From a virus (taxonomy: Duplodnaviria > Heunggongvirae > Uroviricota > Caudoviricetes), in IMG/VR virus record IMGVR_UViG_3300020049_008481: a DNA stretch of 64,000 bases. One strand, given 5' to 3'. Position numbers and translations under genes: made by a program. The notes beneath the pieces were generated by a model that had not been told where the DNA came from, searched no databases, and worked only from the letters and a program-made list of their open reading frames with translations. This document shows, in pieces, positions 10,049-63,255 of the stretch; the stretch's first letter is position 1, and the number at the start of each line of letters is the position of its first letter.

Positions 10049-10458
10049 TGGCAGACACAAATACATCTTTAAAAGAAGTAGCAATAATGAAAGCATCAGA
10101 AACAGTAAAAGTATCTACAGTACAGTTAGAGAGAGAAAGTTCCAGGCAAGGCAGGGAAGAGCTAATTAAGCTTCTAGCAATTGACGCCCTTCTTAAGTTG
10201 TTGGACTACGGTAACTGTGAACTAAAAAACATTAATCTAGTTCATTCAGGAATGCCTGAATTCGTAGACGACGCATGGGTTGTACCGCAAGTAGAGGTTC
10301 ATATTGAAGCGGATACGGTTCCTATCGTAATGACACGGCATGCCACAATGGCAACCTCCACTGAGGCAGCCTGGCATTACTTCTGTCACGGTGAAGCATT
10401 CCTTGATATTGCAGAATTGGGATCTATACTTATAGGCCAAATGGCAGAGGAAGATTAG
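10048..10458 (+). CDS. hypothetical protein
   Basis: ORF, tiled (TAATG overlap). Confidence 0.5.
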   Translation: MADTNTSLKEVAIMKASETVKVSTVQLERESSRQGREELIKLLAIDALLKLLDYGNCELKNINLVHSGMPEFVDDAWVVPQVEVHIEADTVPIVMTRHATMATSTEAAWHYFCHGEAFLDIAELGSILIGQMAEED

Positions 10459-10625
10459 TGCATATACTGTATGCGGATACGGCATGCTTTGGATTCACCC
10501 TCCGTAATGCAATAGCTCGTGGAGATAGACCTGCTTTAGAGGCACTAAAGAAAGAGCTTGACACTACTGATAGAATGAATCATAAATACTCAACAGTACG
10601 TTGGATCGAATACGAAAGTGATTAA

Positions 10626-11399
10626 ATGCCTAGAGCGCACGTAGCAAACTTCACAATCCAGCTAGGACCAATCAGCCTGACTGGAAGACTATTCAATATC
10701 ACCCTACCGAACCGAAACGAATACCGTGAATTCGTTTCAATCGCACCCGACATTGAACCCCCAACGAGGGTTCAGCAAGTGTATCAGACGCCCGAAGGCA
10801 CAGGCTCATGGACCCGAGGACAATTAGCTCGGGCACGTGTTGTCCTTAATAATGAAGGCGAAGAAGAACTAGTCAAGGTGTCAGTAGAAGATGTTGCAGA
10901 AGTAAGGACATCAACTCTACCTGAGAACGTTCTACGCACAACCATTCATCCACGTAAAGAAATTGAAGGATCAACATTCTTTGCGGAAGGCTCATATGTG
11001 TTCGTGCCTAACATTGCAGACGAATATCATGGCCTAGTTTTAAAGATGGTTTCAGACTCAGACAAGGCATTCGTTGGCATGTGCAAGGTACGTACCACAG
11101 AAGGATTCTGGCGGCTAACAACATGGCGCAACCAGATTGTAGTACAGAAACTGCTGTGGCCCGATGAGGTAACAGAACTTGAAGGTGTGAGTGTGGAACT
11201 TCCACAGGAACATTACGATGCAGCCATGCAGATGATTGACCGTGTAACAGTAGACTTTGATGCTTCACAGTACAGAAACGCATACCGTGAACGTTCTGAA
11301 CAGTTAGACGCAGAGCTTAGTGGTTCTGAGTTGCCACGAGAGGCCCCTACAACACCCGTAGACAGCCTCCTGAGCATCCTTGAAGGGTTCGGTGCCTAA
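10626..11399 (+). CDS. hypothetical protein (257 aa)
   Basis: ORF preceded by a 160-nt gap that may hold a 55-aa GTG-start ORF. Confidence 0.5.
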   Translation: MPRAHVANFTIQLGPISLTGRLFNITLPNRNEYREFVSIAPDIEPPTRVQQVYQTPEGTGSWTRGQLARARVVLNNEGEEELVKVSVEDVAEVRTSTLPENVLRTTIHPRKEIEGSTFFAEGSYVFVPNIADEYHGLVLKMVSDSDKAFVGMCKVRTTEGFWRLTTWRNQIVVQKLLWPDEVTELEGVSVELPQEHYDAAMQMIDRVTVDFDASQYRNAYRERSEQLDAELSGSELPREAPTTPVDSLLSILEGFGA

Positions 11400-37455: not shown

Positions 37456-40404
37456 TTACTCTCCCAATCCTAATTCTGCCTGCCAGTTAAACAAGTCATC
37501 GTCTGGTACAATAATTCTCCTATCACCCGTAGCATGCCGGTAGATTGCAGTCTCAAAGTTATCACGCTGCTGCTCCATTTTAAGCTCATCTTTAGCTCTT
37601 AAGACTAAGGGGTCGCCCTGCGGGATCATAGCTAGAGACAAAGGAGCGAACTGGAAAGAAGTCAAGGCATTCTTACCTCCGTGTCTTGACTTAAGAATTC
37701 TCATCTTAACTTCACCAGTTTTTTCATCCTCCTGCCTGCCTTTAATGTTGTCATCTGAAAATAAAGAGAATACGAAATCTGCAGTTTCCTCTACAGTGCC
37801 AGCGTCTCTAGCACTATCAGCTTCAATCTCTTCACCAAACTTAGTCCCACGGTTCACCTGATGCGGTGTGAATATCGTTAACTTCAAATCCTTAGCTATA
37901 GCCTTCATTTCCATGATGGCTGCGCCAGTGCGTTCGTACCCCTCACCTTTAAAGGACCTTGCCCAGTAACCTAGATAATCTACACCAACAAAATCTGGCT
38001 TAGCACCTAGTTCAAACTCGTACTGCTCTACGCAGTTTATAAATTCATCGGGGGTTACACGGTTTTTGTCAATAATTAAAAGTCTATCTCTAAAGAAATC
38101 CAGACAATCTCTATCACTAGCTTGCGGATTATAGAACCTATAGATCCGTCTAGCACGTTCGAACCACTCAGCCCGCGTTTGCTCTAAAGAGACAAACAAT
38201 ATCTTCTTACTAGGATCTGACATCAATAATCTATGGAAGATATTGAGAATCATAATAGTATTGTGTGTAACAATATGAGACTTCTCAATGAGATATAAAG
38301 AATCCTCAGAGTCTACAGAAATACACCTAATCTCAGACTCGCCCTCAGGCTTAATTGATACTATAGCTCGCATCGGGGTTGTCTTATTTATTACCGTAGG
38401 TTCTATATTCTTCCTAATAGATGAAAATGCTTTTATCTCATCTGGTAACATAATTGACAATTGACCTTCCGGTACAACATCTTCATTCCTCTGAATCCAA
38501 GATTCCATAGCAGTACCACCGAGAGAAGTTACAAGCCTTATCATGTCTTTCAAAAGCTGTCTAGATGAACTGTAATAATTACATGACTTGCGATTCTGAT
38601 TTTGTCTACTACTGCCATCACCATCCATAAGTCCTTGCAATAATGCCACTCTCTGCTCCACCGAAGAGACGAAATACTCTTCCGGGATAAACTTTAAACC
38701 ACTTTTTACATTTAACCCCATCCCCCTAATGGTAGAAATCAAATTATGAATTGTATATGCATCACAAACATCACCTTTACGGTTAATTTTTACAACAGTG
38801 TATACCTCTCGCACCCTAGCAGCCACTTCGGGATCAGGGGTGGTTAAAGCTACAGAACCCCCAGCTAAGTATCCATTAGATATCAAAGCGCCTAAGGTGT
38901 ACGGATCGACAGGTAAATCCTTATGATCGTATTGGACGGGAGAACACATGGGGATCTTGTAACGATACTCTCTATTCTTATATCCAGCATGAAGATTCTT
39001 AGACATCAAATCCTTTGTTGAATAATTAGAAGATTTTATCCATTTTCTCTCACGACCATATCGCTCTAAAACTGTCCAAATATGATCACCATCTACAATA
39101 GTAGACGTGCGATCACTAAAAGTAACCCTATATGTCTGCAATACCCCACGGTCAAATACATCTGTTATTCTAGTTGGGTGACCATTGCTACCAAAAACAT
39201 AGTCTCCAACTTCTAAATCTCCCCATTTTCTAATTCCATTAGGAGTGGGAACATCAGTATCTAAGGGGTGACCTTTTCCAACATTTGTTTTTGCAAGCAT
39301 AACAGCAACCTGGCCTGGTTTCAGACCTGGCTGGATGCGAGAATCTATAGATTCGATGCCAAGCTTCAATCCACCAGTGAACCGATCTTCTTCCCACTCA
39401 TCCCATGCTTCATCTACGCTTAGAAGAATACCACCCCTAGCTTTAATAAGCAACATCTTAAAGTCGTCCGCAGAATGTTGCTTACCAATAAGCCATTCGG
39501 TAGGGTCATTCTTTGTGCCGTCATCATCATCTGGCGGCATCTTGACAATCTTGGCCCGAGCGCCAATCGAAATAGAAATCTTCTCTGCACCACGAGCGCC
39601 AGTCTCGTCAGCATCTAGACAGACATAGACCCTGGAAGCCGAAGATAGGTAGTCATTCCAACCGTCTTGCCATGATAGCTCTCCCGGAACCCCAACAGCG
39701 TCAAAACCATACTGCTCCAATACCATCGCATCAAACTCACCGGCTGCAACCACGACCTCCGTGCTGGTCGCCACCCTATCCGCATTGAACAGTTTGGCTT
39801 TATGGCCAGTAGGGGTTAGGTATTTGTTTTTAGAGTTATCTAGTTTCCGTCCACGAATTTGAAGCACCTTACCGAAGCTTAGATAAGGAATAGCGATGCA
39901 CCCTGCTAAGAATTCTCTGCCATACTGGTCCATCATGCCAGACGCAATAACCTCTTCTTTAGTGAACCCCTGCTTAAACAGTAATGGTATAAGAGATTTG
40001 CCATCCGAATACCCTAGCTTATGTGATTCAATTGTTTCAAAAGTTAAACCACGTTCGTCCTTAAGATAATCGTAAGCAAATTCATTCTCAGCTAAAGACT
40101 CGTAGTAGTGCTCTGCTGCTGACTGCAAGACCTGCGACACCCTATAAGAATTCTCTATTTGAGAATCCTCTTTCAAAACTGGGTCACCGAAATGCTTACG
40201 AAGCTTATTTAGTGCACCACGTTCGTCGCATAAGAAACAAGTGAACAGCCCAGGAGGGTCGCCACTTGGGTCAACGTTAATATACAATCTTCCCCTTGAA
40301 GACTGATCCTCGTTACAAAAGAAGCAGGGACCATGAATTTCATTGTTCCCTGCTCTCTTGAAAGGCCACTTCTTATCTAAAAGATAACCTTCTACATCTG
40401 CCAC
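37456..40404 (-). CDS. primase-helicase (zinc-binding domain + TOPRIM primase + DnaB-family helicase) interrupted by an intein
   Basis: N-terminal CFFC...CFLC zinc finger; TOPRIM VVVAAGEFDAMV ... VCLDADETG; P-loop AKTNVGK then about 338 aa of intein before the helicase resumes (T)IMILNIFHRL; C-terminal RecA-fold helicase blocks. Confidence 0.8.
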   Translation of the reverse strand: MADVEGYLLDKKWPFKRAGNNEIHGPCFFCNEDQSSRGRLYINVDPSGDPPGLFTCFLCDERGALNKLRKHFGDPVLKEDSQIENSYRVSQVLQSAAEHYYESLAENEFAYDYLKDERGLTFETIESHKLGYSDGKSLIPLLFKQGFTKEEVIASGMMDQYGREFLAGCIAIPYLSFGKVLQIRGRKLDNSKNKYLTPTGHKAKLFNADRVATSTEVVVAAGEFDAMVLEQYGFDAVGVPGELSWQDGWNDYLSSASRVYVCLDADETGARGAEKISISIGARAKIVKMPPDDDDGTKNDPTEWLIGKQHSADDFKMLLIKARGGILLSVDEAWDEWEEDRFTGGLKLGIESIDSRIQPGLKPGQVAVMLAKTNVGKGHPLDTDVPTPNGIRKWGDLEVGDYVFGSNGHPTRITDVFDRGVLQTYRVTFSDRTSTIVDGDHIWTVLERYGRERKWIKSSNYSTKDLMSKNLHAGYKNREYRYKIPMCSPVQYDHKDLPVDPYTLGALISNGYLAGGSVALTTPDPEVAARVREVYTVVKINRKGDVCDAYTIHNLISTIRGMGLNVKSGLKFIPEEYFVSSVEQRVALLQGLMDGDGSSRQNQNRKSCNYYSSSRQLLKDMIRLVTSLGGTAMESWIQRNEDVVPEGQLSIMLPDEIKAFSSIRKNIEPTVINKTTPMRAIVSIKPEGESEIRCISVDSEDSLYLIEKSHIVTHNTIMILNIFHRLLMSDPSKKILFVSLEQTRAEWFERARRIYRFYNPQASDRDCLDFFRDRLLIIDKNRVTPDEFINCVEQYEFELGAKPDFVGVDYLGYWARSFKGEGYERTGAAIMEMKAIAKDLKLTIFTPHQVNRGTKFGEEIEADSARDAGTVEETADFVFSLFSDDNIKGRQEDEKTGEVKMRILKSRHGGKNALTSFQFAPLSLAMIPQGDPLVLRAKDELKMEQQRDNFETAIYRHATGDRRIIVPDDDLFNWQAELGLGE
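38260..39273 (-). other. class-3-like (WCT) intein with LAGLIDADG homing-endonuclease domain inserted in the helicase P-loop
   Basis: No Cys/Ser at intein position 1 (G/HPLDTDVPTPNG block A). Block B DHIW. Two LAGLIDADG-like motifs (LGALISNGYLAGG, LLQGLMDGDGSS). Block F Cys (IRCISV). C-terminal VTHN followed by Thr +1. Confidence 0.6.
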
Positions 40405-44662: not shown

Positions 44663-44872
44663 TCATTTGTCTTCTCCAAAAAGTATAAAGTATATCTCAT
44701 ACACGTTAGCATTTAAGCACCTCATCAAAGAAGCAAATGCATGGACAGTCGGAGACATGGCACCCGATTCAATTTTAGAAACGTATGCAGGCGATAACCC
44801 AGCTTTCAACGAAAGCTCTCGGGCACTTATTCCACTTCTTTTTCTTAACTCATGAAAAAGAATTACATTCAT
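44663..44872 (-). CDS. XRE-family helix-turn-helix protein (69 aa)
   Basis: LRKRSGISARELSLKAGLSPAYVSKIESG HTH_3 signature. Confidence 0.55.
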   Translation of the reverse strand: MNVILFHELRKRSGISARELSLKAGLSPAYVSKIESGAMSPTVHAFASLMRCLNANVYEIYFILFGEDK

Positions 44873-47800
44873 GCTAGGGTTTTTACCTTAGATACAGATA
44901 GCTTATTGTTATCCTCTAACATTCTACCTTTAACCCATACCACAGAGTCCTCGTTAAGAAGAGATATTACTTTTGGATAGTCTTTTGGGAATACGACAGC
45001 TTCAACACTCCACTCTAAATCTTCTAAATTAAAAGTAGCCATCCAATCCCCTTTCTTAGTTATCTTCTTTTGTATATTACTAACCATACCTGTAGTGCTT
45101 ACATAAGCACTACCCTTAGACTCCACTAGTTCACCTATAGTAAACTCCCTACCCTGTTCTAGTATTCCCTCCATCCCAATTAAAGGATGATCACTAACAT
45201 AAACCCCAAGAACTTCCTTTTCTTTAGCCATTTTCTCTTCACGGGAAAACTCTTCAAGGGGAATCGCCACGTCATGTTCAAACACATCGAACAAAGTCAT
45301 GACCCCATTATCTTCATCTTTTTGATGCCTCTTAGATTTCTTTAATGAATCTTCATAAATACTTAGCAGGCCCTTGCGACTATGGCCTAAAGAATCAAAT
45401 GCACCTGCATTAATCAACGAACCAAGTGCCTTCTTATTTATAAGAGCCATAGGTCCATCCTTAATGAACTTGTGAAAATCGGAATAAGGGCCACCGTACT
45501 CTTCAACAAGGCTCACCGATACAGCCTGACCAACATCTCTTACGGCTGCCATGGCGAACAGGATGGCCCCGTCCTCGGTTGGCGCGAAATCAACTCCTGA
45601 TTTGTTAATGTCTGGGACCAAGACGGGGATTTGCATTCGTCTACATTCATTTAAATAGATAGCTAGCTTATCTGACTTATCTATCACGCTGGTTAGTAAC
45701 GCTGCCATATACTCGACTGGATAATGAGCTTTAAGGTATGCGGTTTGATACGCAATAAAGCCATAAGAGTAAGCATGGCTAGCGTTAAAAGCATAATCGG
45801 CAAATGGTTCCATGATGTCGAACAAAGAATGGCCTATAGTTCCATACCCCTGGGCTATGCACCCTTGAACAAACTTGTCCCGCTCAGCAGCAATAAGATT
45901 CCTATCTTTTTTACCCATTGCTTTTCGGAGCATATCTGCTTCAGCCAGAGAATAGCCAGCCATTTTCTGGGCAACCTTCATGATGCTTTCTTGATAGATC
46001 ATCAGACCGTATGTGCTGGAAAGCACATCTTCAAGATCAGGATGGTAATAGGTGACAGGTTTGCGACCAGTCTTTCTGTCAGCGTAATCTTTATGCATAT
46101 TAGCTGCCATAGGGCCAGGACGGTACAAAGCCACCAGGGCTGCTACGTCATCCAAGGAATTCGGTTCCAAGAGTTTCATGAGGTTCCGCATTTCCTTAGA
46201 TTCTAGCTGGAAAACACCTATAGCGTGACCTGACTGTAGTAGGTCAAACGTCTTACCATCCTCTAAGGGAAGTTCATCAATATCAACCTCTACTCCTTGG
46301 CGGGACTTAACGTGTTTAAGTGTATCAGTTATAACATCAAGGTTCCTTAAAGCCAAGAAATCCATCTTTAATAACCCTAAGTCATCACAAGCCGTAGCCT
46401 CATATTGGGTTACGATAGGGGCCTCTTCTGGGTCTTGATTGACTTTATTCTTACGTTGAATCGGCACATAGTCAGTTAAAGGATCTTTGGTGATAATTAC
46501 GGCTGCCGCATGGATGCCGTCCTGCCTACGCAGGTCTTCCAGTCCCAGGGCGACATCAATAACTTTTTTAGTATCTGGATCGCGGTTATATAGCTCACGC
46601 AAATCCTTTGCTAAGCCATAGCCGTCTTTGAATTCTTCTTTCAATTCAAAGCAAGCATGAAGTGGAGTGCTTCTGCCAGCTATAAGCTTGGGCATGAGCC
46701 TATTAATATTACGTCCCACATCGAATTCATAACCTAAGACTCTAGCTGCGTCCTGCACGGCAGCCCTCGCCTTAATAGTTGAGAACGTAATGATTTGGGC
46801 AACATGGTCACGCCCATATTTCTGTGCAGCATAATTAATCATATGATCACGATAACGTGAATCAAAGTCCATATCTATGTCTGCCATAGAAACCCTATCT
46901 GGATTTAAGAAACGTTCGAACAGCAAATCGTACTTGATAGGGTTAATGTTTGTTACACCTAGAGAATAGGCTACTGCGCTTCCAGCGGCGCTACCCCGAC
47001 CTGCGCCGGTACGAATCCCATTTTCTTTAGCATGACGAATTAGGTCCCATACAACTAAGAAGTAAGATTCCAACCCAAGGTTAGATATAACATCCAACTC
47101 ATAGCCTAGTCTATAGATAACTTCATCTGGAAGATCTTGACCCCATCGCTCAACAGCACCTTCAAAAGTGAGATGATGTAGATAAGACTTATAATCATTA
47201 AAGCCAATTGGCAGAGGGAATTCTGGCATAGAGGGTCGATGAAAGTCTATTTCAACGTTACAACGCTCAGCTACAAGTAACGTGTTGTCACAAGCGACTT
47301 CAACTTCACGAAACAGATAACGCATTTCTTCAGCGGTTTTAATATAGTGCTCTTCACCTGTGAACTTAAATCTGTCAGGATCGGATAATCTAGAACCCGT
47401 TTGGACACAATTATGTGTTACAATTCCATCAGCTATGTATGTATGATCTTCAGAAACATCAATAGAATAAACATCACCAGAATAATTTTCTCTACTTACA
47501 GTGATAGCCTGCCACGCACCCGATCCTGCATAAGTATGAACACTACTACTAAGACCAGGAGCACACATCAACATCCCAGATAATAAATTACAAGCTCTTA
47601 TCTCGTTAGTCCTTCTTTGCCCCGGTTGTAAAGTTCGGACATCCCAGAATGGATACTCAAACTTTCTATTATATGAGCTAATGCAGTTTTTAGCCCTAGC
47701 TTCAAGATCACATTCTCCGGTGGTTCGCTCCCATAGGGGCTTGTAATAGTCAGTTCTAGGCAAACTTTTCCTTACATCATAAAAAGACCAAGTAGGAATT

Positions 47801-49053
47801 CCAAACTTTTGACTTATGAATAGTTCTTCTTGATTAGCTTCTGCCTTTGTTTTGTGAACAGTTAAAGCCCATATTGCATCAGCATTTTGTTCTTTAGCCC
47901 TAGCTATTAATCCTAAAACTCCGGTTCCAGGCCTATTCTTAGACCTAATCCTTTGGAATTGGGTCGACCCAATCCTGTATTTACTTCCTTGACGCATTAT
48001 GTAGGTTACATAGTTACCATCAGTCGGATCAGAATCCAGTCTAACTATGCAGATATGATCGTCGGTATATCGAGATTCTTCTCCACTAGTCAGATTTACC
48101 TTTATAAGTTCTCCAAGATATTGTCTTGATCCAACCTGAGTCACATAGTTACCAAGTTTATGGACTCGTCCTTTCCTATCTTTTCCAGACCAAGAGACTA
48201 CCCGATCACCAACCCTTATATCCTCTATATTGGTGGCATCAACTAGAACCTTCCACGAGGACCCCCTTGGATTACCAGCTAAAGTCGTTCCAGTAACTCT
48301 AAGAACTTTTGTACCAGGGGGCTGACAAAGTAAAGCCCCATGAGACTCTGCATCATGCTTATGCACGTAATGACTATCGTTAGTTGCAACTAACGGAGCG
48401 TTTAGCTTCTTAGCTATCCTCATAAGCGAAGGGTTTGTAAAAGTCTGCTCTTCTAAACCATGATCTTGAATTTCAATAAACAGATTATCTTTACCAAAGA
48501 TATCTTGCAATCGAGCAGCTTTAGCTAGGGCGGCATTATAGTTGTCCCTTTTACCTCTTCGCTTATTAAGTAGTTCCTGTAAGACATGCCCGCCAAGGCA
48601 GCCTGTCGTCGCAATGATGCCTCTAGAATGTTGCTCTAGAAGTTCCCAGTCTACTTTAGGTTTCTTGTAATACCCCTCTAAGTAAGCTTTACTTGACAGT
48701 TGAATAAGGTTCTGATAACCCTCATTAGTCTCAGCCAAAGTGGTTATATGATAATACTGCTTCAGATTGTCTTCAGTTTCACCACCGCCATCTTTTACTT
48801 TCCCCTTACTGGTGATGCGTTCAGTTCTGTGGTCCCTAGCCTGGTACAACTCGCTACCAATAATAGGTTTTATACCAGCCGCCTTAGCCGCCTTGTAGAA
48901 GGGGATAACGCCATACATGTTACCATGATCAGTGATAGCTGCTGCTGGCTGGTCATCTTCAGCCACCGCCGCAACAACTCCATCCACCTTCGCTGCGCCA
49001 TCGAGCATGGAATACTCTGTATGCAGATGAAGGTGGGCAAATGATTTACCCAA
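44869..49053 (-). CDS. dnaE: DNA polymerase III alpha subunit (DnaE-type, PHP domain) containing an intein
   Basis: N-terminal PHP block HLHLHTEYSMLDGA; LVATNDSHYV...HGALL|C...; extended Pol IIIalpha core to residue 1394; about 200 aa longer than typical DnaE, accounted for by a 306-aa intein. Confidence 0.85.
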   Translation of the reverse strand: MGKSFAHLHLHTEYSMLDGAAKVDGVVAAVAEDDQPAAAITDHGNMYGVIPFYKAAKAAGIKPIIGSELYQARDHRTERITSKGKVKDGGGETEDNLKQYYHITTLAETNEGYQNLIQLSSKAYLEGYYKKPKVDWELLEQHSRGIIATTGCLGGHVLQELLNKRRGKRDNYNAALAKAARLQDIFGKDNLFIEIQDHGLEEQTFTNPSLMRIAKKLNAPLVATNDSHYVHKHDAESHGALLCQPPGTKVLRVTGTTLAGNPRGSSWKVLVDATNIEDIRVGDRVVSWSGKDRKGRVHKLGNYVTQVGSRQYLGELIKVNLTSGEESRYTDDHICIVRLDSDPTDGNYVTYIMRQGSKYRIGSTQFQRIRSKNRPGTGVLGLIARAKEQNADAIWALTVHKTKAEANQEELFISQKFGIPTWSFYDVRKSLPRTDYYKPLWERTTGECDLEARAKNCISSYNRKFEYPFWDVRTLQPGQRRTNEIRACNLLSGMLMCAPGLSSSVHTYAGSGAWQAITVSRENYSGDVYSIDVSEDHTYIADGIVTHNCVQTGSRLSDPDRFKFTGEEHYIKTAEEMRYLFREVEVACDNTLLVAERCNVEIDFHRPSMPEFPLPIGFNDYKSYLHHLTFEGAVERWGQDLPDEVIYRLGYELDVISNLGLESYFLVVWDLIRHAKENGIRTGAGRGSAAGSAVAYSLGVTNINPIKYDLLFERFLNPDRVSMADIDMDFDSRYRDHMINYAAQKYGRDHVAQIITFSTIKARAAVQDAARVLGYEFDVGRNINRLMPKLIAGRSTPLHACFELKEEFKDGYGLAKDLRELYNRDPDTKKVIDVALGLEDLRRQDGIHAAAVIITKDPLTDYVPIQRKNKVNQDPEEAPIVTQYEATACDDLGLLKMDFLALRNLDVITDTLKHVKSRQGVEVDIDELPLEDGKTFDLLQSGHAIGVFQLESKEMRNLMKLLEPNSLDDVAALVALYRPGPMAANMHKDYADRKTGRKPVTYYHPDLEDVLSSTYGLMIYQESIMKVAQKMAGYSLAEADMLRKAMGKKDRNLIAAERDKFVQGCIAQGYGTIGHSLFDIMEPFADYAFNASHAYSYGFIAYQTAYLKAHYPVEYMAALLTSVIDKSDKLAIYLNECRRMQIPVLVPDINKSGVDFAPTEDGAILFAMAAVRDVGQAVSVSLVEEYGGPYSDFHKFIKDGPMALINKKALGSLINAGAFDSLGHSRKGLLSIYEDSLKKSKRHQKDEDNGVMTLFDVFEHDVAIPLEEFSREEKMAKEKEVLGVYVSDHPLIGMEGILEQGREFTIGELVESKGSAYVSTTGMVSNIQKKITKKGDWMATFNLEDLEWSVEAVVFPKDYPKVISLLNEDSVVWVKGRMLEDNNKLSVSKVKTLA
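47410..48327 (-). other. intein in the PHP domain of DnaE (Cys1 ... TDDH block B ... VTHN, +1 Cys)
   Basis: Begins CQPPGTKVLRV after ...ESHGALL and ends DVYSIDVSEDHTYIADGIVTHN|CVQTGSRLSDP. Removal restores the conserved HGALLCVQTG...DPDR DnaE sequence. No clear LAGLIDADG motif. Confidence 0.6.
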
Positions 49054-59228: not shown

Positions 59229-59371
59229 GGGCCAGCCTCTTCTTCTACAGTCCTAATTTGGTAGAGCTTAGGATCAGTTGGGGCCAGGCGTAGCACTGAT
59301 CTGGAGCTTGTACGTTCCAGTTGAGCAGCCAGTTCTTCAGATATCTCAAAGTAAGGAGGCAAAGCTGCCAT
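59225..59371 (-). CDS. tiny coupled ORF (48 aa)
   Basis: Starts at the TAATG overlap with the 1294-aa gene stop and ends at the CCATGAGG overlap with the next gene start; fills an otherwise empty 140-nt gap. Confidence 0.35.
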   Translation of the reverse strand: MAALPPYFEISEELAAQLERTSSRSVLRLAPTDPKLYQIRTVEEEAGP

Positions 59372-62300
59372 TATCCCACCACCAATTCCATGCCCTTGAG
59401 CAGATACCCATCTGACTCAAGCAACTGTCCTCTATTAAGCTTCTTCAACCTATTAATATTGAATCTCTCAGGGAAGTATCTACCGTTAAGCCGAACTCTG
59501 ATGCGATCCCATGTTTCATAGTCATCAGGGATAACGTATCTACGATAAGGCTTGGGGAGTTCCTGATTAGTACCACTCTTACGTAACGCCCAGTTCTCTC
59601 GGTCACCAAGCCAGTTGGTTTCTAGCGTCATGGTGTATTTACCAGTGGTAAAGTTATGGCTGGAACGTATGCTTCTAACGTAATGGATGCTTGACTCTGC
59701 AGTCACCCTTTCAATAATCCGAACTTGGTCATTGCAACTCAGTAGAGGATTGGCTTTAATGGTAGCATTTGTCTGCCTGAGGGACATGAAGATATGCATC
59801 GAAATAAGTTCAGCCATGCGTCTCTGCTCTTCAAGAGACATAAAAGTATTATTGATCCACATAACAGGGTTGACCATACCACGAAGCAGGTCTTTACCTA
59901 CAGGATTCTTGAACCGTGTAGTCTTAGTGGCCTCTAAGTTTTCGGTTGGCTCTTCGGTAGAGACAATAATTTCTGATCTAACATTGTCAACATTAAGTTG
60001 CTTAGACAAGTCGAACAAGTTAGTGTCCTCATTTAGCTCTGGAATAAATATAGTTCTCGTACCATATTCATCAAAGTTCCCAGGCTGATAGAAGTTAGGC
60101 GACTCGAAATGACACTCGCCCTCTTCACCGATCCAGAAGAAATAACCAACAATCTGTCTAATCTGATTAATCACGTCAATAGGCGGACGCTTATCAAACA
60201 TGTCAGCAGGCAAAGGTGCCTCCGCATATGCCCCAGTAGATTCGATGTTACCATACACGTCAGGGTACTGAAGCTGTAAAGGCTTCCATCCAACAAGCAG
60301 GAAGCTGAACATCACATTAGCCGTGCCATCAAAAACGATAGTGTTATCTCCTGGCTCCATGAACCACCAATCATTCGCTGGATCAAGTGAGCTTGAATAA
60401 TCAACTCCACCGGGGCCAATCGCAGTCTCAAGAGCAAAGTTAACCACAGTACCTGCCGGTAGCGGTACAGTTGACTGCACAATTGGGGTGCCAGCAGAAG
60501 AGGCATTCGTTACCTTTAGGATACCAGTAGCTTGCATTGTGACAACTGGCATCGAGTTGACGAATACAGGATTAGACATGTTTATAGTTTGACTAGGTGA
60601 CGTGGTTGTATATGTGGTTTGAGGTCTGGGCTGCTCAACACTCGGTAAGCGATGATATGATCCATCCCTAAGTGGCAGCAAGTACCATCCTGCCCACAAC
60701 AGGATCTGCTTGATGATGTCACTGTAGTCAGAGTTGCCAGTAAAATACACCGTACCACGCCTGCGAGCCAACCAGTTATGATGTTTCAAGGTGGGACACC
60801 AGATAATTCCAGAGTATAATTCGTTTGTTACTTTAAGGGGGTTCTTAACCTTTTTCTGAGAAGATAGAACAGGACACACAACATCCCCTGATCTGACTGT
60901 CGTGCTCCACTTGCTGAACATCTTAGTCGTATTAGGAGTTAATCCCGCAAGAACACATGCCATTTCGAACATTCTTATTCTACGTTCATCTTTTTGGGTT
61001 AAGATGACCACACCATTATCTTTACGTCGATGGCCATCAGCATCAACACTTGTTTCTATAAAAATACTCAATTGCTTCTTGGTCAAAGAGCACAAGAAAT
61101 CAACCGTAGGAACTCGATCAGGAGCTACTAACTCAAATTCTCTTCTCACTTCATTACATAACCTATATACCGAAACGCCAGAGTTGTTTATAGTTTCTCT
61201 CCATTTGCAGGGCTTCTTGCCATGTCCATAGCTCATAGAACCAGGAGGGCCATATAAATTGTAAAGACACTTTTCTATCCTTAAAGCATATGGCAAGTTA
61301 ACTTCTTTTGATTGAGCTATGCAAGCCCTATCGGACAAAGACCCTTCGGTCCAGAACCAAGCTATTAATTCTACGAATTCATCAGAATACTTTGAAACCA
61401 ACGGAGTATCTGAACGATCAACTGATGTAGGAATTCTACTCTTATAATCAAGAGTTTCAGTAGTCCCCCAGCTAAATTCACCTTCCTTGGACTTCAATAA
61501 CCATTTATGATTAGGAGTGGTCAGCGAACTATGCCTACGTCCTTCCATCCTAACCATTTCTAAATCAGTGTAATCCTTAACAAACATCTCAGTTATCATA
61601 CTCCACTCAGAAGTCCCAGTGAGTGGATTGATTGAGAGCGATTCATCACCTATTTTAACTTCATCCCAATGTAGCCAACCTCTCTTCGTCAAGATTTCTG
61701 TCTGGTCATCAACACAATAGTTTCCTGGGTATCTATTAGAAGTGGTCGTGTAGGTGGTGCGGTTCTCATAGGTTGGAGGGACATAACCAGATCCACCACC
61801 ACCACCTTCTAGTGGAGTAGTGTCGTAGAATTTTACTTCACGGATTCCAGCACGATAAGGAAAATCACCCAACTTACTGTTCTGAAGATGTCTAAAAGAT
61901 ATACGGACTTTTTCTACGCCGTCGTAGGTTCTTCCAAGATCAAACATCGTCTTGGCTTTAGCGTTAAAGTTCTCAGTTCTACGACCAAGCTTCTTGGCAG
62001 CAATGTATTTGATACCCGCATTAGTATTGCCAAGCACAGCTAGGGAATAAGGAATCTTCTTTGAACCTATCCACTTACCATCTATTCTTAGACTTACATA
62101 TGCAACAAAACCAGATCCCCAAGTTGTCAACTCCACTGAGTCCATAGACTGCCCATTAAGGTCAGCTTCCCACCAGACGGTCCCATAGGGCTGTGTAGCG
62201 CCCTGGTAGCCCTCTGATAGCCAGAAGGTACGCTCATTCTCATCTATGGCGTTAGCGGGGTACCAGCCGTATACCCCATGATTAGATCCACCGTAATGAA

Positions 62301-63255
62301 CATCAGAGCTAGAACTAGAATATGTTGCAGGTCTACGGATCTGATTGGTAGCAATTTCACCTGTAGGAACACTGATGGACCCAGGATCGATGAGGATAGA
62401 TTCAACCACAGGGGTTATGATTGTTTCATCCCTATACTTAGAGAGCCTAAGTGGATAACTATCGGCTGGCATAAACGGAGGATACATCTGAGTCTGCAAA
62501 AGCAGCTTCGTCATGTCCTGACAGGGGATAGTTATTTTACGAGAACGTGAATCAAAGGTGGGGCTATTCGCCAGCCACACACCAGTTAGAACAACATCAC
62601 CATCGGCTTTAGCCTGCTCAAACGTCTTCTCAGGATCGGAAGTCTCAGCGTATCCCTCGTAAGTCCTGAATAGAGCGTTAGGCACGATTTCGTTGTACCA
62701 TTCATTATTATCATGCTCCCATAAGCTTGTCGCAATTAAACTAGCCCCACCAGTTCTCCTTGGGTCAAAGACACCATCTGGCTTAAGAACAACGTATTTA
62801 TCACCGCCGCGGTTAGGAGTCATATAGCCTGGTCGGCCAAGATCGTTAGATGGGCGGCCTGAAACTTCCCCATTAGCCATTAGGTTTTGGTTGCCAAGAA
62901 CTAGCGTACACTCGGCTGCCTGAGACTCGACAGATCGATTCCATTCGATAGATTCCACGTTAGGAAGAACTGTTTCTATCTGATCATTATCGGCACGCTG
63001 CCACCAGCGGAACGGCCCCTTGGGGGTTTTAACACTGTTATACGGGTTGGCTGGTTCCGTATTTGGATGATCACGTTCAGGCGGGGCAGGATCAGGTTCG
63101 CCAGTATCTACATCAGGAAGCTCAGTATAGACAGATGGGTTCGTATATTCAGAAGAAGAAAGGAACCAATCTTTCTCGATAGTCACCCAACCAAGAGGGA
63201 TTAGGGTTCTGTCATCTTGCCATTTTCTCCAAATCCCATTGCTTAACTGTCTCAC
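59371..63255 (-). CDS. large minor tail protein with an F5/8 type C (discoidin-like) carbohydrate-binding domain, interrupted by an intein
   Basis: YPANAIDENERTFWLSEGY...WWEADLNG...AGIREVKFY discoidin-like blocks (residues about 320-477), then a GGGGGSG linker, then the intein (residues 514-841). Confidence 0.55.
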   Translation of the reverse strand: MRQLSNGIWRKWQDDRTLIPLGWVTIEKDWFLSSSEYTNPSVYTELPDVDTGEPDPAPPERDHPNTEPANPYNSVKTPKGPFRWWQRADNDQIETVLPNVESIEWNRSVESQAAECTLVLGNQNLMANGEVSGRPSNDLGRPGYMTPNRGGDKYVVLKPDGVFDPRRTGGASLIATSLWEHDNNEWYNEIVPNALFRTYEGYAETSDPEKTFEQAKADGDVVLTGVWLANSPTFDSRSRKITIPCQDMTKLLLQTQMYPPFMPADSYPLRLSKYRDETIITPVVESILIDPGSISVPTGEIATNQIRRPATYSSSSSDVHYGGSNHGVYGWYPANAIDENERTFWLSEGYQGATQPYGTVWWEADLNGQSMDSVELTTWGSGFVAYVSLRIDGKWIGSKKIPYSLAVLGNTNAGIKYIAAKKLGRRTENFNAKAKTMFDLGRTYDGVEKVRISFRHLQNSKLGDFPYRAGIREVKFYDTTPLEGGGGGSGYVPPTYENRTTYTTTSNRYPGNYCVDDQTEILTKRGWLHWDEVKIGDESLSINPLTGTSEWSMITEMFVKDYTDLEMVRMEGRRHSSLTTPNHKWLLKSKEGEFSWGTTETLDYKSRIPTSVDRSDTPLVSKYSDEFVELIAWFWTEGSLSDRACIAQSKEVNLPYALRIEKCLYNLYGPPGSMSYGHGKKPCKWRETINNSGVSVYRLCNEVRREFELVAPDRVPTVDFLCSLTKKQLSIFIETSVDADGHRRKDNGVVILTQKDERRIRMFEMACVLAGLTPNTTKMFSKWSTTVRSGDVVCPVLSSQKKVKNPLKVTNELYSGIIWCPTLKHHNWLARRRGTVYFTGNSDYSDIIKQILLWAGWYLLPLRDGSYHRLPSVEQPRPQTTYTTTSPSQTINMSNPVFVNSMPVVTMQATGILKVTNASSAGTPIVQSTVPLPAGTVVNFALETAIGPGGVDYSSSLDPANDWWFMEPGDNTIVFDGTANVMFSFLLVGWKPLQLQYPDVYGNIESTGAYAEAPLPADMFDKRPPIDVINQIRQIVGYFFWIGEEGECHFESPNFYQPGNFDEYGTRTIFIPELNEDTNLFDLSKQLNVDNVRSEIIVSTEEPTENLEATKTTRFKNPVGKDLLRGMVNPVMWINNTFMSLEEQRRMAELISMHIFMSLRQTNATIKANPLLSCNDQVRIIERVTAESSIHYVRSIRSSHNFTTGKYTMTLETNWLGDRENWALRKSGTNQELPKPYRRYVIPDDYETWDRIRVRLNGRYFPERFNINRLKKLNRGQLLESDGYLLKGMELVVG
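60733..61716 (-). other. intein with LAGLIDADG-type homing endonuclease inside the minor tail protein
   Basis: Block A CVDDQTEILTKRGW; block B TTPNHKWL; LAGLIDADG-like VELIAWFWTEGS and LSIFIETSVDADGH; blocks F/G LYSGIIWCPTLKHHNWLARRRGTVYFTGN with +1 Ser (penultimate Gly instead of His). Confidence 0.55.

Follow-up and report, generated by a model that had tools for sequence, protein, structure and literature searches.

A likely LAGLIDADG-containing intein within a phage tail-module protein combines Cys1 with a class 3-like residue set

A tail-module protein encoded in the window, by which we mean the whole stretch of 64,000 nucleotides analysed here (IMG/VR record IMGVR_UViG_3300020049_008481), very likely carries a full-length intein at residues 514-841, exactly inside the host motif GNY|(x)DYxDI; it comprises a Hint splicing domain in which a LAGLIDADG homing endonuclease is nested. 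A 328-aa intein with a LAGLIDADG endonuclease had been proposed in an earlier, sequence-only reading of this DNA, and that proposal is borne out: the segment has the expected fold and catalytic residues, is inserted precisely and belongs to a mobile family spread across unrelated hosts. The intein is a genuine member of a large known phage intein family, and its host protein has not previously been catalogued as an intein target. In the published catalogues consulted, phage inteins are found in enzymes of DNA metabolism and packaging (PMC5050341) or in 'terminase proteins and non-structural genes' (PMC3706429). The protein studied here (the query) and at least 35 metagenomic homologs show that inteins have repeatedly invaded one tail structural protein family, at several of its conserved motifs, and extend the intein host range into the tail module. 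The general understanding of inteins is unchanged by these findings.

The precursor ORF (59371..63255; all coordinates given here are on the minus strand) has a GTG start and encodes 1294 aa in a reading frame that is uninterrupted across 3,885 nt, and its N-terminus aligns with the N-termini of its homologs. It consists of an N-extein (61717..63255, aa 1-513, ending in NRYPGNY), which is homologous to P0002-P0013 and to a host protein homolog in the phage GX15bay, of the intein itself (60733..61716, 328 aa, from Cys1 to Thr-Gly-Asn) and of a C-extein (59371..60732, aa 842-1294 plus the stop codon, starting with SDYSDIIKQILLWAGW). The GC content is lower in the intein (0.405) than in the exteins (0.467 and 0.448), in keeping with mobility. 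Four neighbouring genes are syntenic with GX15bay, where the homolog of the host protein is preceded by a 2098-aa tape-measure-like gene ('minor tail protein') and a 129-aa ORF; the tape-measure gene expected upstream of the precursor ORF would lie past the end of the window. Two homologs of the host protein match PHROG 'tail protein' entries (best E 9e-8), and a 902-aa ORF downstream of the precursor ORF matches tail-fiber PHROGs. Synteny and the PHROG matches of the two homologs support the assignment of the host as a probable phage tail (tail-tip or minor tail) protein, in agreement with the initial description of this ORF as a 1294-aa tail-module protein.

The intein had also been placed just after an F5/8 type C domain and a poly-Gly linker, and both points call for correction. 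A match to F5/8 type C (PF00754) is present at aa 328-384, but it falls below threshold (13 bits for a cut-off of 28.2; E = 0.11-0.15), and only two of 13 host-family members have matches to PF00754 (best E 0.035; same cut-off of 28.2 bits). A GGGGG run does precede the intein (aa 484-488), but the intein starts 25 residues further on rather than directly adjoining it, and its insertion point is the conserved host motif, not the linker. A megablast search against phages gave no match, and the C-terminal extein domain used as a homolog query returned only three short matches and hence no prevalence estimate; prevalence was approached instead by scanning IMG/VR with a profile of the host protein. 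When this profile was compared with the PDB, matches were confined to RCC1-like repeats, which the query protein is without.

The insertion site was defined by comparison with insert-free homologs. Once the intein is taken out in silico, the host sequence reads RYPGNY|SDYSDIIKQILLWAGW and can be aligned to all 12 of these homologs with no gap, and the spliced junction is 73% identical to RYPGNYLDYTDIIRELLLWSGW in the homolog P0004. The near-invariant motif GNY|xDYxDI that is split in the query is thus contiguous in 12/12 homologs, and GX15bay and several IMG/VR loci also read through the site uninterrupted. Insert-free homologs carry L, K, D, R or G where the intein-bearing protein has its Ser+1. 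A full-length MAFFT alignment (A1) had scattered the intein over the RCC1-like repeats of the homologs, giving a misleading appearance of homology that was resolved by alignment of the spliced junction. A TTYTTTS peptide flanking the intein was considered as a target-site duplication, and this was rejected: its two copies are identical at 16 of 21 DNA positions, one at a distance of 22 nt and the other of 115 nt from the junctions. Inteins do not generate target-site duplications.

The intein boundaries that had been proposed are exact: CVDDQTEILT starts at aa 514, TVYFTGN ends at aa 841, and Ser842 follows. The predicted structure comprises a Hint and a LAGLIDADG domain, and the failure of Hint-fold prediction that had been named as a refutation did not occur. 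The Hint fold is built from the N- and C-terminal segments, and these two lobes flank the endonuclease, with their ends coinciding exactly with the break in the host motif. Block A (CVDDQTEILTKRGW, 61675..61716) holds the Cys1 nucleophile, 99% conserved in 204 family copies. Block B (SSLTTPNHKWLLK, 61492..61530), numbered according to the class 3 reference, contains T67 (B:7, 99%), H70 (B:10, 100%) and W72 (B:12, 99%). Blocks F and G (GIIWCPTLKHHNWLARRRGTVYFTGN, 60733..60810) contain C307 (F:4), T326 (G:5), G327 (G:6) and N328 (G:7); in the 204 copies W306, C307, T326 and G327 are 100% conserved, N328 98% and R318/R319 95-98%. Ser+1 (Ser842, 60730..60732), the first residue of the C-extein, is the predicted transesterification nucleophile. 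Both LAGLIDADG motifs retain their acidic residue and the glycine that follows: E124 (95%) and G125 (99%) in motif 1 (DEFVELIAWFWTEG, 61342..61383), which is helical in the model, and D227 (99%) and G228 (94%) in motif 2 (LTKKQLSIFIETSVDADG, 61033..61086). The modelled endonuclease core has an alpha-beta-beta-alpha-beta-beta-alpha arrangement with two helices that each end in a predicted catalytic acidic residue, as in double-motif, monomeric LAGLIDADG homing endonucleases.

In fold comparisons, the LAGLIDADG region matches I-DmoI and PI-SceI, and the best structural match to the Hint part alone is the AceL NrdHF intein. The solved archaeal and yeast inteins TliVMA (7qsu), PI-PkoII (2cw8), PI-PfuI (1dq3) and PI-SceI (1jva) share only 9-14% identity with the query; all of class 1, these end in His-Asn, carry an Asp in block F and reside in ATPases and polymerases. 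The check with intein HMMs (Hint, LAGLIDADG_3) did not succeed: Pfam gave no Hint or Intein_splicing match for the whole protein or for the isolated segment (E <= 10 on the segment), LAGLIDADG_3 matched intein residues 219-266 at only E = 0.15, and NCBIfam gave no match. The profile of the intein family itself reached PDB inteins at only E = 0.01-0.5. The absence of curated-HMM matches is explained by the divergence of the family, and we do not take it as evidence against an intein.

Two explanations other than an intein were weighed against these data. Introns with endonuclease ORFs are known in phage structural genes, such as the capsid and tail genes of Cluster J (PMC3706429), and the segment might accordingly be an artefact of annotation or assembly, with a free-standing homing endonuclease gene or an intron-borne ORF in frame with the halves of a split tail gene. 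The continuous frame of 3,885 nt, the Hint lobes that flank the endonuclease and end exactly at the host-motif break, and the same architecture and boundaries in over 200 independent proteins make this explanation extremely improbable. It is also improbable, though less so, that the Hint domain has degenerated or been domesticated and has ceased to splice, either staying in the tail protein permanently or acting as a BIL-like autoproteolytic maturation module that cleaves without ligation. This explanation would agree with the absence of the canonical penultimate His and block F Asp, with the lack of any curated intein HMM at threshold and with the decay of some family copies, which are dead (G1, or TGD, TGT and TGP termini) or, as in L011, an allele at the same site, frameshifted inside the intein. 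However, all catalytic residues that are invariant in the family, Cys1, Asn328 and Ser+1 among them, are retained in the query, whereas BIL domains are without a +1 nucleophile; the host motif that the segment splits is near-invariant and would therefore probably be disrupted if a 37-kDa insert stayed in place or a cut were left unligated; and one family member splices efficiently (PMC5050341). The BIL domain and the intron-borne ORF were both set aside on the retained catalytic residues, the continuous frame and the exact motif-break boundaries, and a full-length intein remains the preferred reading.

Searches with the intein segment alone recovered 4,668 cluster representatives at E <= 1e-3, 647 of them at E <= 1e-30, so that a chance resemblance can be dismissed. 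In cultured phages the family resides in portal, TerL, DNA methylase and DNA pol I genes, and it is also present in amidases and Cas4-like nucleases. The query's nearest relatives, two inteins with 60% and 55% identity, share its exact insertion site in other tail-protein homologs, which hints indirectly at site-specific cleavage of intein-less alleles. In metagenomes the host tail-protein family has been invaded at no fewer than four sites. Full-length homologs with 33-41% identity are found in the Gordonia phages Woes, Hail2Pitt, GordDuk1 and GMA3 (portal/TerL inteins) and in the portal intein of Caudovirales GX15bay, which also encodes the uninterrupted homolog of the host tail protein. These portal inteins, like that of the query, lie in a virion structural protein, but the portal and TerL inteins belong to other host genes and insertion sites, and none is in a tail protein. 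Portal inteins are already in GenBank records, though unremarked, and automated annotation will mis-size or mis-cluster intein-bearing tail proteins. Two further inteins, in Pol III alpha and in a helicase, lie within the window.

The residues retained in the query suggest the following route. The precursor would be translated whole, and the Hint domain would draw both junctions together. The Tyr513-Cys514 peptide bond would be converted to a thioester, most likely by Cys1, as in class 1 inteins, with the invariant block F Cys307 as an alternative or additional nucleophile, as in class 3. The N-extein would then be passed to the hydroxyl of Ser842, cyclisation of Asn841 would release the intein, and an O-to-N shift would restore a native Tyr-Ser bond, yielding a mature tail protein of 966 aa that reads ...RYPGNYSDYSDII... 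(predicted junction peptide, YPGNYSDYSDIIK). The free intein, with E124 and D227 intact, probably cuts intein-less alleles of this tail gene in co-infecting phages, and repair would copy the intein into the cut allele (homing).

The penultimate residue of the intein is indeed Gly (G327), as had been noted, but the accompanying statement that in known inteins this slows Asn cyclisation is contradicted for this family by two observations. A penultimate His (G:6) is common but not obligatory in inteins, and Gly is found at this position in 204/204 family copies. Moreover, the homologous RDF intein of mycobacteriophage Bethlehem splices completely with its native Gly, and its G316H variant is slow (PMC5050341); the AceL NrdHF intein is likewise functional without the G:6 His. 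A penultimate Gly is normal for this family and does not stand in the way of rapid splicing, and maturation of the tail protein should therefore be complete by the time of assembly with no need for dedicated regulation. Tail assembly must in any case come after splicing.

The Bethlehem intein, which resides in the RDF (metallophosphoesterase, gp51/gp52; Kelley et al. 2016, PMC5050341), belongs to the same family over its full length (HMM E = 8e-35). It shares a size of ~320 aa, a LAGLIDADG core, Cys1, the block F W-C, a T-G-N terminus (HLTGN|S) and Ser+1. It differs in its low pairwise identity (only ~22%), in a Val instead of Trp at B:12 and in its host, which is an enzyme of DNA metabolism and not part of the virion. 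The query has the Cys1 of class 1 inteins, but Cys at F:4, where Asp is typical, and Gly at G:6, where His is typical; in its family the Trp-Cys-Thr triplet of class 3 coexists with Cys1. With its signature of Cys1, W-C-T and Gly-Asn, the family offers a tractable system in which to study the evolution of class 3 splicing from class 1.

This residue set makes it possible, although we consider it the less likely course, that the query is a true intein that follows the class 3 route, in which the attack on the N-terminal junction comes from Cys307 and the branched intermediate formed at block F is then passed on to Ser+1. Cys1 would then be dispensable or auxiliary, and the family a Cys1-retaining relative of class 3. 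W72 (B:12), C307 (F:4) and T326 (G:5), 99-100% conserved in the 204 copies, match the prototype geometry (H-x-W, Cys 21 residues before Asn, Thr two before Asn), with the same 21-residue spacing as in MP-Be (C320/T339/N341) and Msm DnaB-1 (C118/N139). Identical Trp(B:12)-Cys(F:4)-Thr(G:5) spacing is common to the class 3 inteins (MP-Be 'DnaB'/TerL, Msm and Mch DnaB-1, AceL NrdHF), which also share Ser/Thr at +1, phage association and a LAGLIDADG core with the query, and, in AceL NrdHF, the absence of the G:6 His. The +1 residue in 203 copies is S in 104, T in 80, C in 18 and A in one (S/T/C 202/203), and the 91% of Ser/Thr corresponds to the class 3 preference. Of the two other inteins in the window, the class 3 one in the helicase received 17.0 bits from the family HMM, and the class 1 one in Pol III only 0.9 bits. 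Tori et al. were already aware of three W-C-T inteins that have Ser1/Cys1, without settling how these splice. However, class 3 is defined in part by the absence of an N-terminal nucleophile, and sequence similarity to its prototypes is weak. Cys1 is present in the query and in 201/203 copies (99%), which argues that it is needed. Kelley et al. took the homologous RDF intein as class 1 (PMC5050341), and that intein has Val, not Trp, at B:12. A class 1 intein onto which W-C-T had been grafted did not splice by the class 3 route.

A broader and more speculative proposal, which we regard as rather unlikely, is that the family, with Cys1, the invariant Trp-Cys-Thr and Thr-Gly-Asn, is a living class 1/class 3 intermediate that uses, or is able to switch to, the block F Cys branched-intermediate pathway. 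Repeated invasion at four or more conserved motifs would have made tail maturation splicing-dependent, possibly in a redox-sensitive manner via a Cys1-Cys307 disulfide, as a natural post-translational checkpoint of virion assembly.

Outside the intein, the C-extein contains a query-specific insertion of ~136 aa (aa 861-996, 60268..60675; columns ~1467-1592 of alignment A1), which is missing from 12/12 homologs.

The 1294-aa tail-module protein is encoded by a single long open reading frame with a GTG start (59371..63255, minus strand), and the segment considered here occupies aa 514-841 (328 aa; nt 60733..61716, minus strand). Both boundary strings quoted in the sequence-only reading are present: CVDDQTEILT opens the segment at aa 514 and TVYFTGN closes it at aa 841, just before Ser842. 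A GGGGG run (aa 484-488) lies 25 residues upstream of the segment, and the G+C content is 0.405 in the segment, 0.467 and 0.448 in the flanking N- and C-exteins, and 0.444 in the window. The only two Pfam matches on the full protein, F5_F8_type_C (E = 0.15, 12.6 bits for a cut-off of 28.2) and SPP1_Dit (E = 0.15), are sub-threshold. With the isolated segment, Pfam LAGLIDADG_3 gave E = 0.15, NCBIfam gave no match, and phmmer against the PDB returned one bacterial intein-like domain at E = 1. Since curated models were almost silent, the intein call was unproven from sequence models alone.

A single-sequence AlphaFold run reached a pLDDT of 36. The model built with a 45-sequence family alignment attained a pLDDT of 96.2 and a pTM of 0.93, with beta-rich ends (residues 1-85 and 260-326) enclosing an alpha/beta core. 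In a Foldseek comparison with the PDB, the top 16 matches were all LAGLIDADG-bearing inteins (E 8e-16 to 4e-9), among them TliVMA, PhoVMA, PI-PfuI, PI-SceI and PI-TkoII; I-DmoI, Hedgehog Hint, BIL domains and mini-inteins ranked lower. A Hint fold is thus successfully predicted for the segment.

We found 12 homologs of the whole host protein, mostly 1010-1036 aa long. In their full-length MAFFT alignment with the query, the 328-aa segment was scattered across a domain of RCC1-like repeats, present in many homologs and missing in the query. After in-silico removal of the intein, the resulting junction, RYPGNY↓SDYSDIIKQILLWAGW (↓, splice or insertion point), aligned without gaps to all 12 homologs, for example RYPGNYLDYTDIIRELLLWSGW in P0004 (73% identity) and RYPGNYLDYVDIIRELLLWGGW in P0003. 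These orthologs carry a contiguous junction and do not show the segment as a native domain, the outcome that would have refuted the sequence-only reading. The G, Y and D of the junction motif are each at least 90% conserved across the host family, and the +1 position is L, K, D, R or G in insert-free homologs and S or T in intein-bearing alleles. The tryptic peptide expected across the junction of the spliced host is YPGNYSDYSDIIK. Nine of the homologs (P0003-P0008 and P0010-P0012) contain GYW..DG.V.AFGDA repeats between the central domain and the GNY motif (alignment columns ~830-1440), which resemble an RCC1-like propeller (HERC2, E = 0.0036; Pfam RCC1_2). This domain is missing in the query, P0002, P0009 and P0013, so that the module immediately preceding the intein site is exchangeable within the host family.

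The intein belongs to a very large and experimentally sampled phage intein family. As sole query, the segment retrieved 55 full-length homologs (31-42% identity) inside unrelated proteins, at sites such as W.DIGY↓C in Amidase_2, DPPY↓C (methyltransferase motif IV-like) and DSLGRxY↓C. In an exhaustive HMMER scan, 4,668 cluster representatives passed E <= 1e-3 and 647 passed E <= 1e-30; many of these proteins hold 2-4 copies. In cultured phages, family inteins were found in the portal proteins of Gordonia phages Woes, Hail2Pitt, Lahirium and Belphegor and of Caudovirales GX15bay, in TerL of GordDuk1, GordTnk2 and GMA3, in DNA methyltransferases of many mycobacteriophages and in one DNA polymerase I. 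Judged by sequence, the segment is a mobile module. The GX15bay portal gene (MK557849.1, 25721..26749), whose intein is 41% identical, is annotated just as 'portal protein', and the annotation of the Gordonia portal genes (Woes, Hail2Pitt and others) is likewise silent on the intein. On three viral contigs, a Cas4/RecB-like exonuclease (C-terminal CxxCPYxxxC) near the host tail gene also contains a full-length family intein (L017 14669..16489; L018 4799..6619; L025 16722..18575), at the site L(N/D)(I/V)QF↓C...TGN↓T.

Residue conservation was counted over 204 full-length family copies. The first residue is Cys in 201 and the last three are TGN in 197, with Ser (104), Thr (80) or Cys (18) at +1. 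The block B T-x-x-H residues T67 and H70 are conserved in 99% and 100%, the LAGLIDADG acidic residues E124 and D227 in 95% and 99%, and W72, W306, C307, T326 and G327 in 99-100%. Together, the insert-free homologs, the conserved catalytic residues and the Hint plus LAGLIDADG model uphold the earlier proposal of an intein with a LAGLIDADG endonuclease: the segment is a real LAGLIDADG intein placed in a conserved host motif and is probably active.

The sequence-only reading had further held that the penultimate Gly would slow Asn cyclisation. Because Gly327 is invariant across the family, it is no lesion in this copy. Moreover, the phosphoesterase/RDF intein of mycobacteriophage Bethlehem (317 aa; C1...VWC...HLTGN↓S) matches the family HMM at E = 8e-35 and is the one assayed by Kelley et al.: with its native Gly, splicing was complete at time zero, and the G316H variant took >5 h for ~50% splicing (PMC5050341). 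This experiment on a family homolog contradicts the inference of slow splicing for this intein family. Kelley et al. also note that phage inteins show poor conservation of the penultimate His (PMC5050341), and this His is missing as well from the class 3 AceL NrdHF intein, which splices in minutes (PMC7891396).

W72, C307 and T326 fall at block positions B:12, F:4 and G:5, and a Trp-Cys-Thr triplet at these positions defines class 3 inteins (PMC2807308; PMC5050341). The segment shares with the class 3 references the block B H-x-W, the Thr two residues before Asn, and a Cys-to-Asn distance of 21 residues (C307-N328 here, C320-N341 in the prototype MP-Be, C118-N139 in Msm DnaB-1); MP-Be was taken from Bethlehem gp11 and its spacing checked by eye (...SASHGW...VKCIGIDTEDHLFQVSRSRILTHN↓T). 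A class 3-like splicing route would also fit the +1 residue, which is Ser or Thr, the class 3 preference, in 91% of family copies, and the scores of the family HMM on two further inteins of the window, 17.0 bits on a class 3 helicase intein vs 0.9 bits on a class 1 Pol III intein. However, class 3 is defined by the lack of an N-terminal nucleophile, whereas Cys1 is 99% conserved in the family; the assayed Bethlehem RDF homolog has Val at B:12 and was handled as class 1 (PMC5050341 for the class); and transferring W-C-T to a class 1 intein failed to yield class 3 splicing (PMC7664689). For three W-C-T inteins with Ser1 or Cys1 in their list, Tori et al. left the mechanism open (PMC2807308). We consider such a route possible but rather doubtful and, given this mixed evidence, file the element as an intein and not as class 3.

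The helicase intein (38260..39273, minus strand; 338 aa) interrupts the P-loop of a primase/DnaB-like helicase (ORF 37456..40404, minus strand; Toprim aa 222-294, DnaB_C aa 773-912). From its sequence (...NVGK↓GHPLDTDVPTP...DHIW...IRCISVDSEDSLYLIEKSHIVTHN↓T), it looks like a canonical class 3 intein: position 1 is Gly, H-x-W is present, a Cys precedes Asn by 21 residues, the terminus is T-H-N and +1 is Thr. Its Pfam LAGLIDADG_3 match has E = 3.6e-7. The class 1 intein (47410..48327, minus strand; ~306 aa) lies in DNA polymerase III alpha (ORF 44869..49053, minus strand; PHP, DNA_pol3_alpha and finger domains) and reads ...HGALL↓CQPPGTKV...VYSIDVSEDHTYIADGIVTHN↓CVQTG, with a Pfam Intein_splicing match (E = 2e-5) below the gathering cut-off. 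Counting the tail-protein intein, three inteins, each of a different flavour, are thus present in the 64-kb window.

Searching with the intein retrieved 197 intein-bearing proteins, of which 35 are homologous to both exteins. Sorted by flanking motif, the copies in tail-protein homologs fall at the query's own site b, GNY↓(S/T)D(Y/W) (7 copies), at site b', three residues downstream in a related subfamily, ..DY↓TDIVK (13), at site a, PNALxR↓TY(E/Q)GYGG (5), at site c, FE↓SPNWW (6), and at other sites (9); six proteins have two family inteins each. The inteins nearest to the query's, in P0069 (60% identity) and P0072 (55%), both occupy the identical site b, as would be expected for allelic homing. 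Among 23 IMG/VR loci sampled by the host profile and not by the intein, two have a host gene interrupted by a family intein: L026 at site a, and L011 (IMGVR_UViG_3300035034_000710, ~10100..11200) at site b (RQDGNY↓CVDIDTEILT...TGN↓TDYSDIVKELCLWSGF). In L011 a frameshift within the intein breaks the reading frame, which reflects either decay of this copy or an error in sequencing. On these sequence comparisons, the tail-protein family is a recurrent intein target.

In the phage collection the host protein has a single relative, 1304 aa long, which GX15bay encodes under the annotation 'glycoside hydrolase family 25' and which runs through the site uninterrupted (FDGDYKDYVDIVRDLVLWGGF). It lies directly downstream of a 2098-aa 'minor tail protein' of tape-measure-like size and a 129-aa ORF, and four genes around it are syntenic with the window. 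Two host homologs match PHROG 'tail protein' families (best E 9e-8), and the 902-aa ORF downstream of the host gene matches tail-fiber PHROGs. The GX15bay synteny and the PHROG matches make a tail-module assignment of the host reasonable, if indirect. The discoidin domain first suggested stays sub-threshold, with matches in 2 of 13 members (best E 0.035). Our literature search found no paper describing a tail-protein intein. A 2025 preprint surveys ~800 actinophage inteins (10.1101/2025.01.02.630785), and a count of its terms gives 5 occurrences of 'portal', 2 of 'tape measure protein', 14 of 'class 3' and 0 of 'tail'. Structural hosts such as the portal are therefore already known, and, in the literature searched, this tail protein appears not yet catalogued as an intein host.

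The C-extein contains a beta-rich insertion of ~136 aa (60268..60675, minus strand; PLRDGSYHRL...WKPLQLQ) missing in 12/12 host homologs, which may serve in receptor binding or decoration. Two copies of the heptapeptide TTYTTTS flank the intein, one 7 residues ahead of it (61738..61758, minus strand) and the other 38 residues behind it (60598..60618, minus strand). At the DNA level the copies agree at 16/21 positions and most of their differences are synonymous, so the pair does not stem from a recent duplication; a Thr-rich linker motif or chance may account for it.
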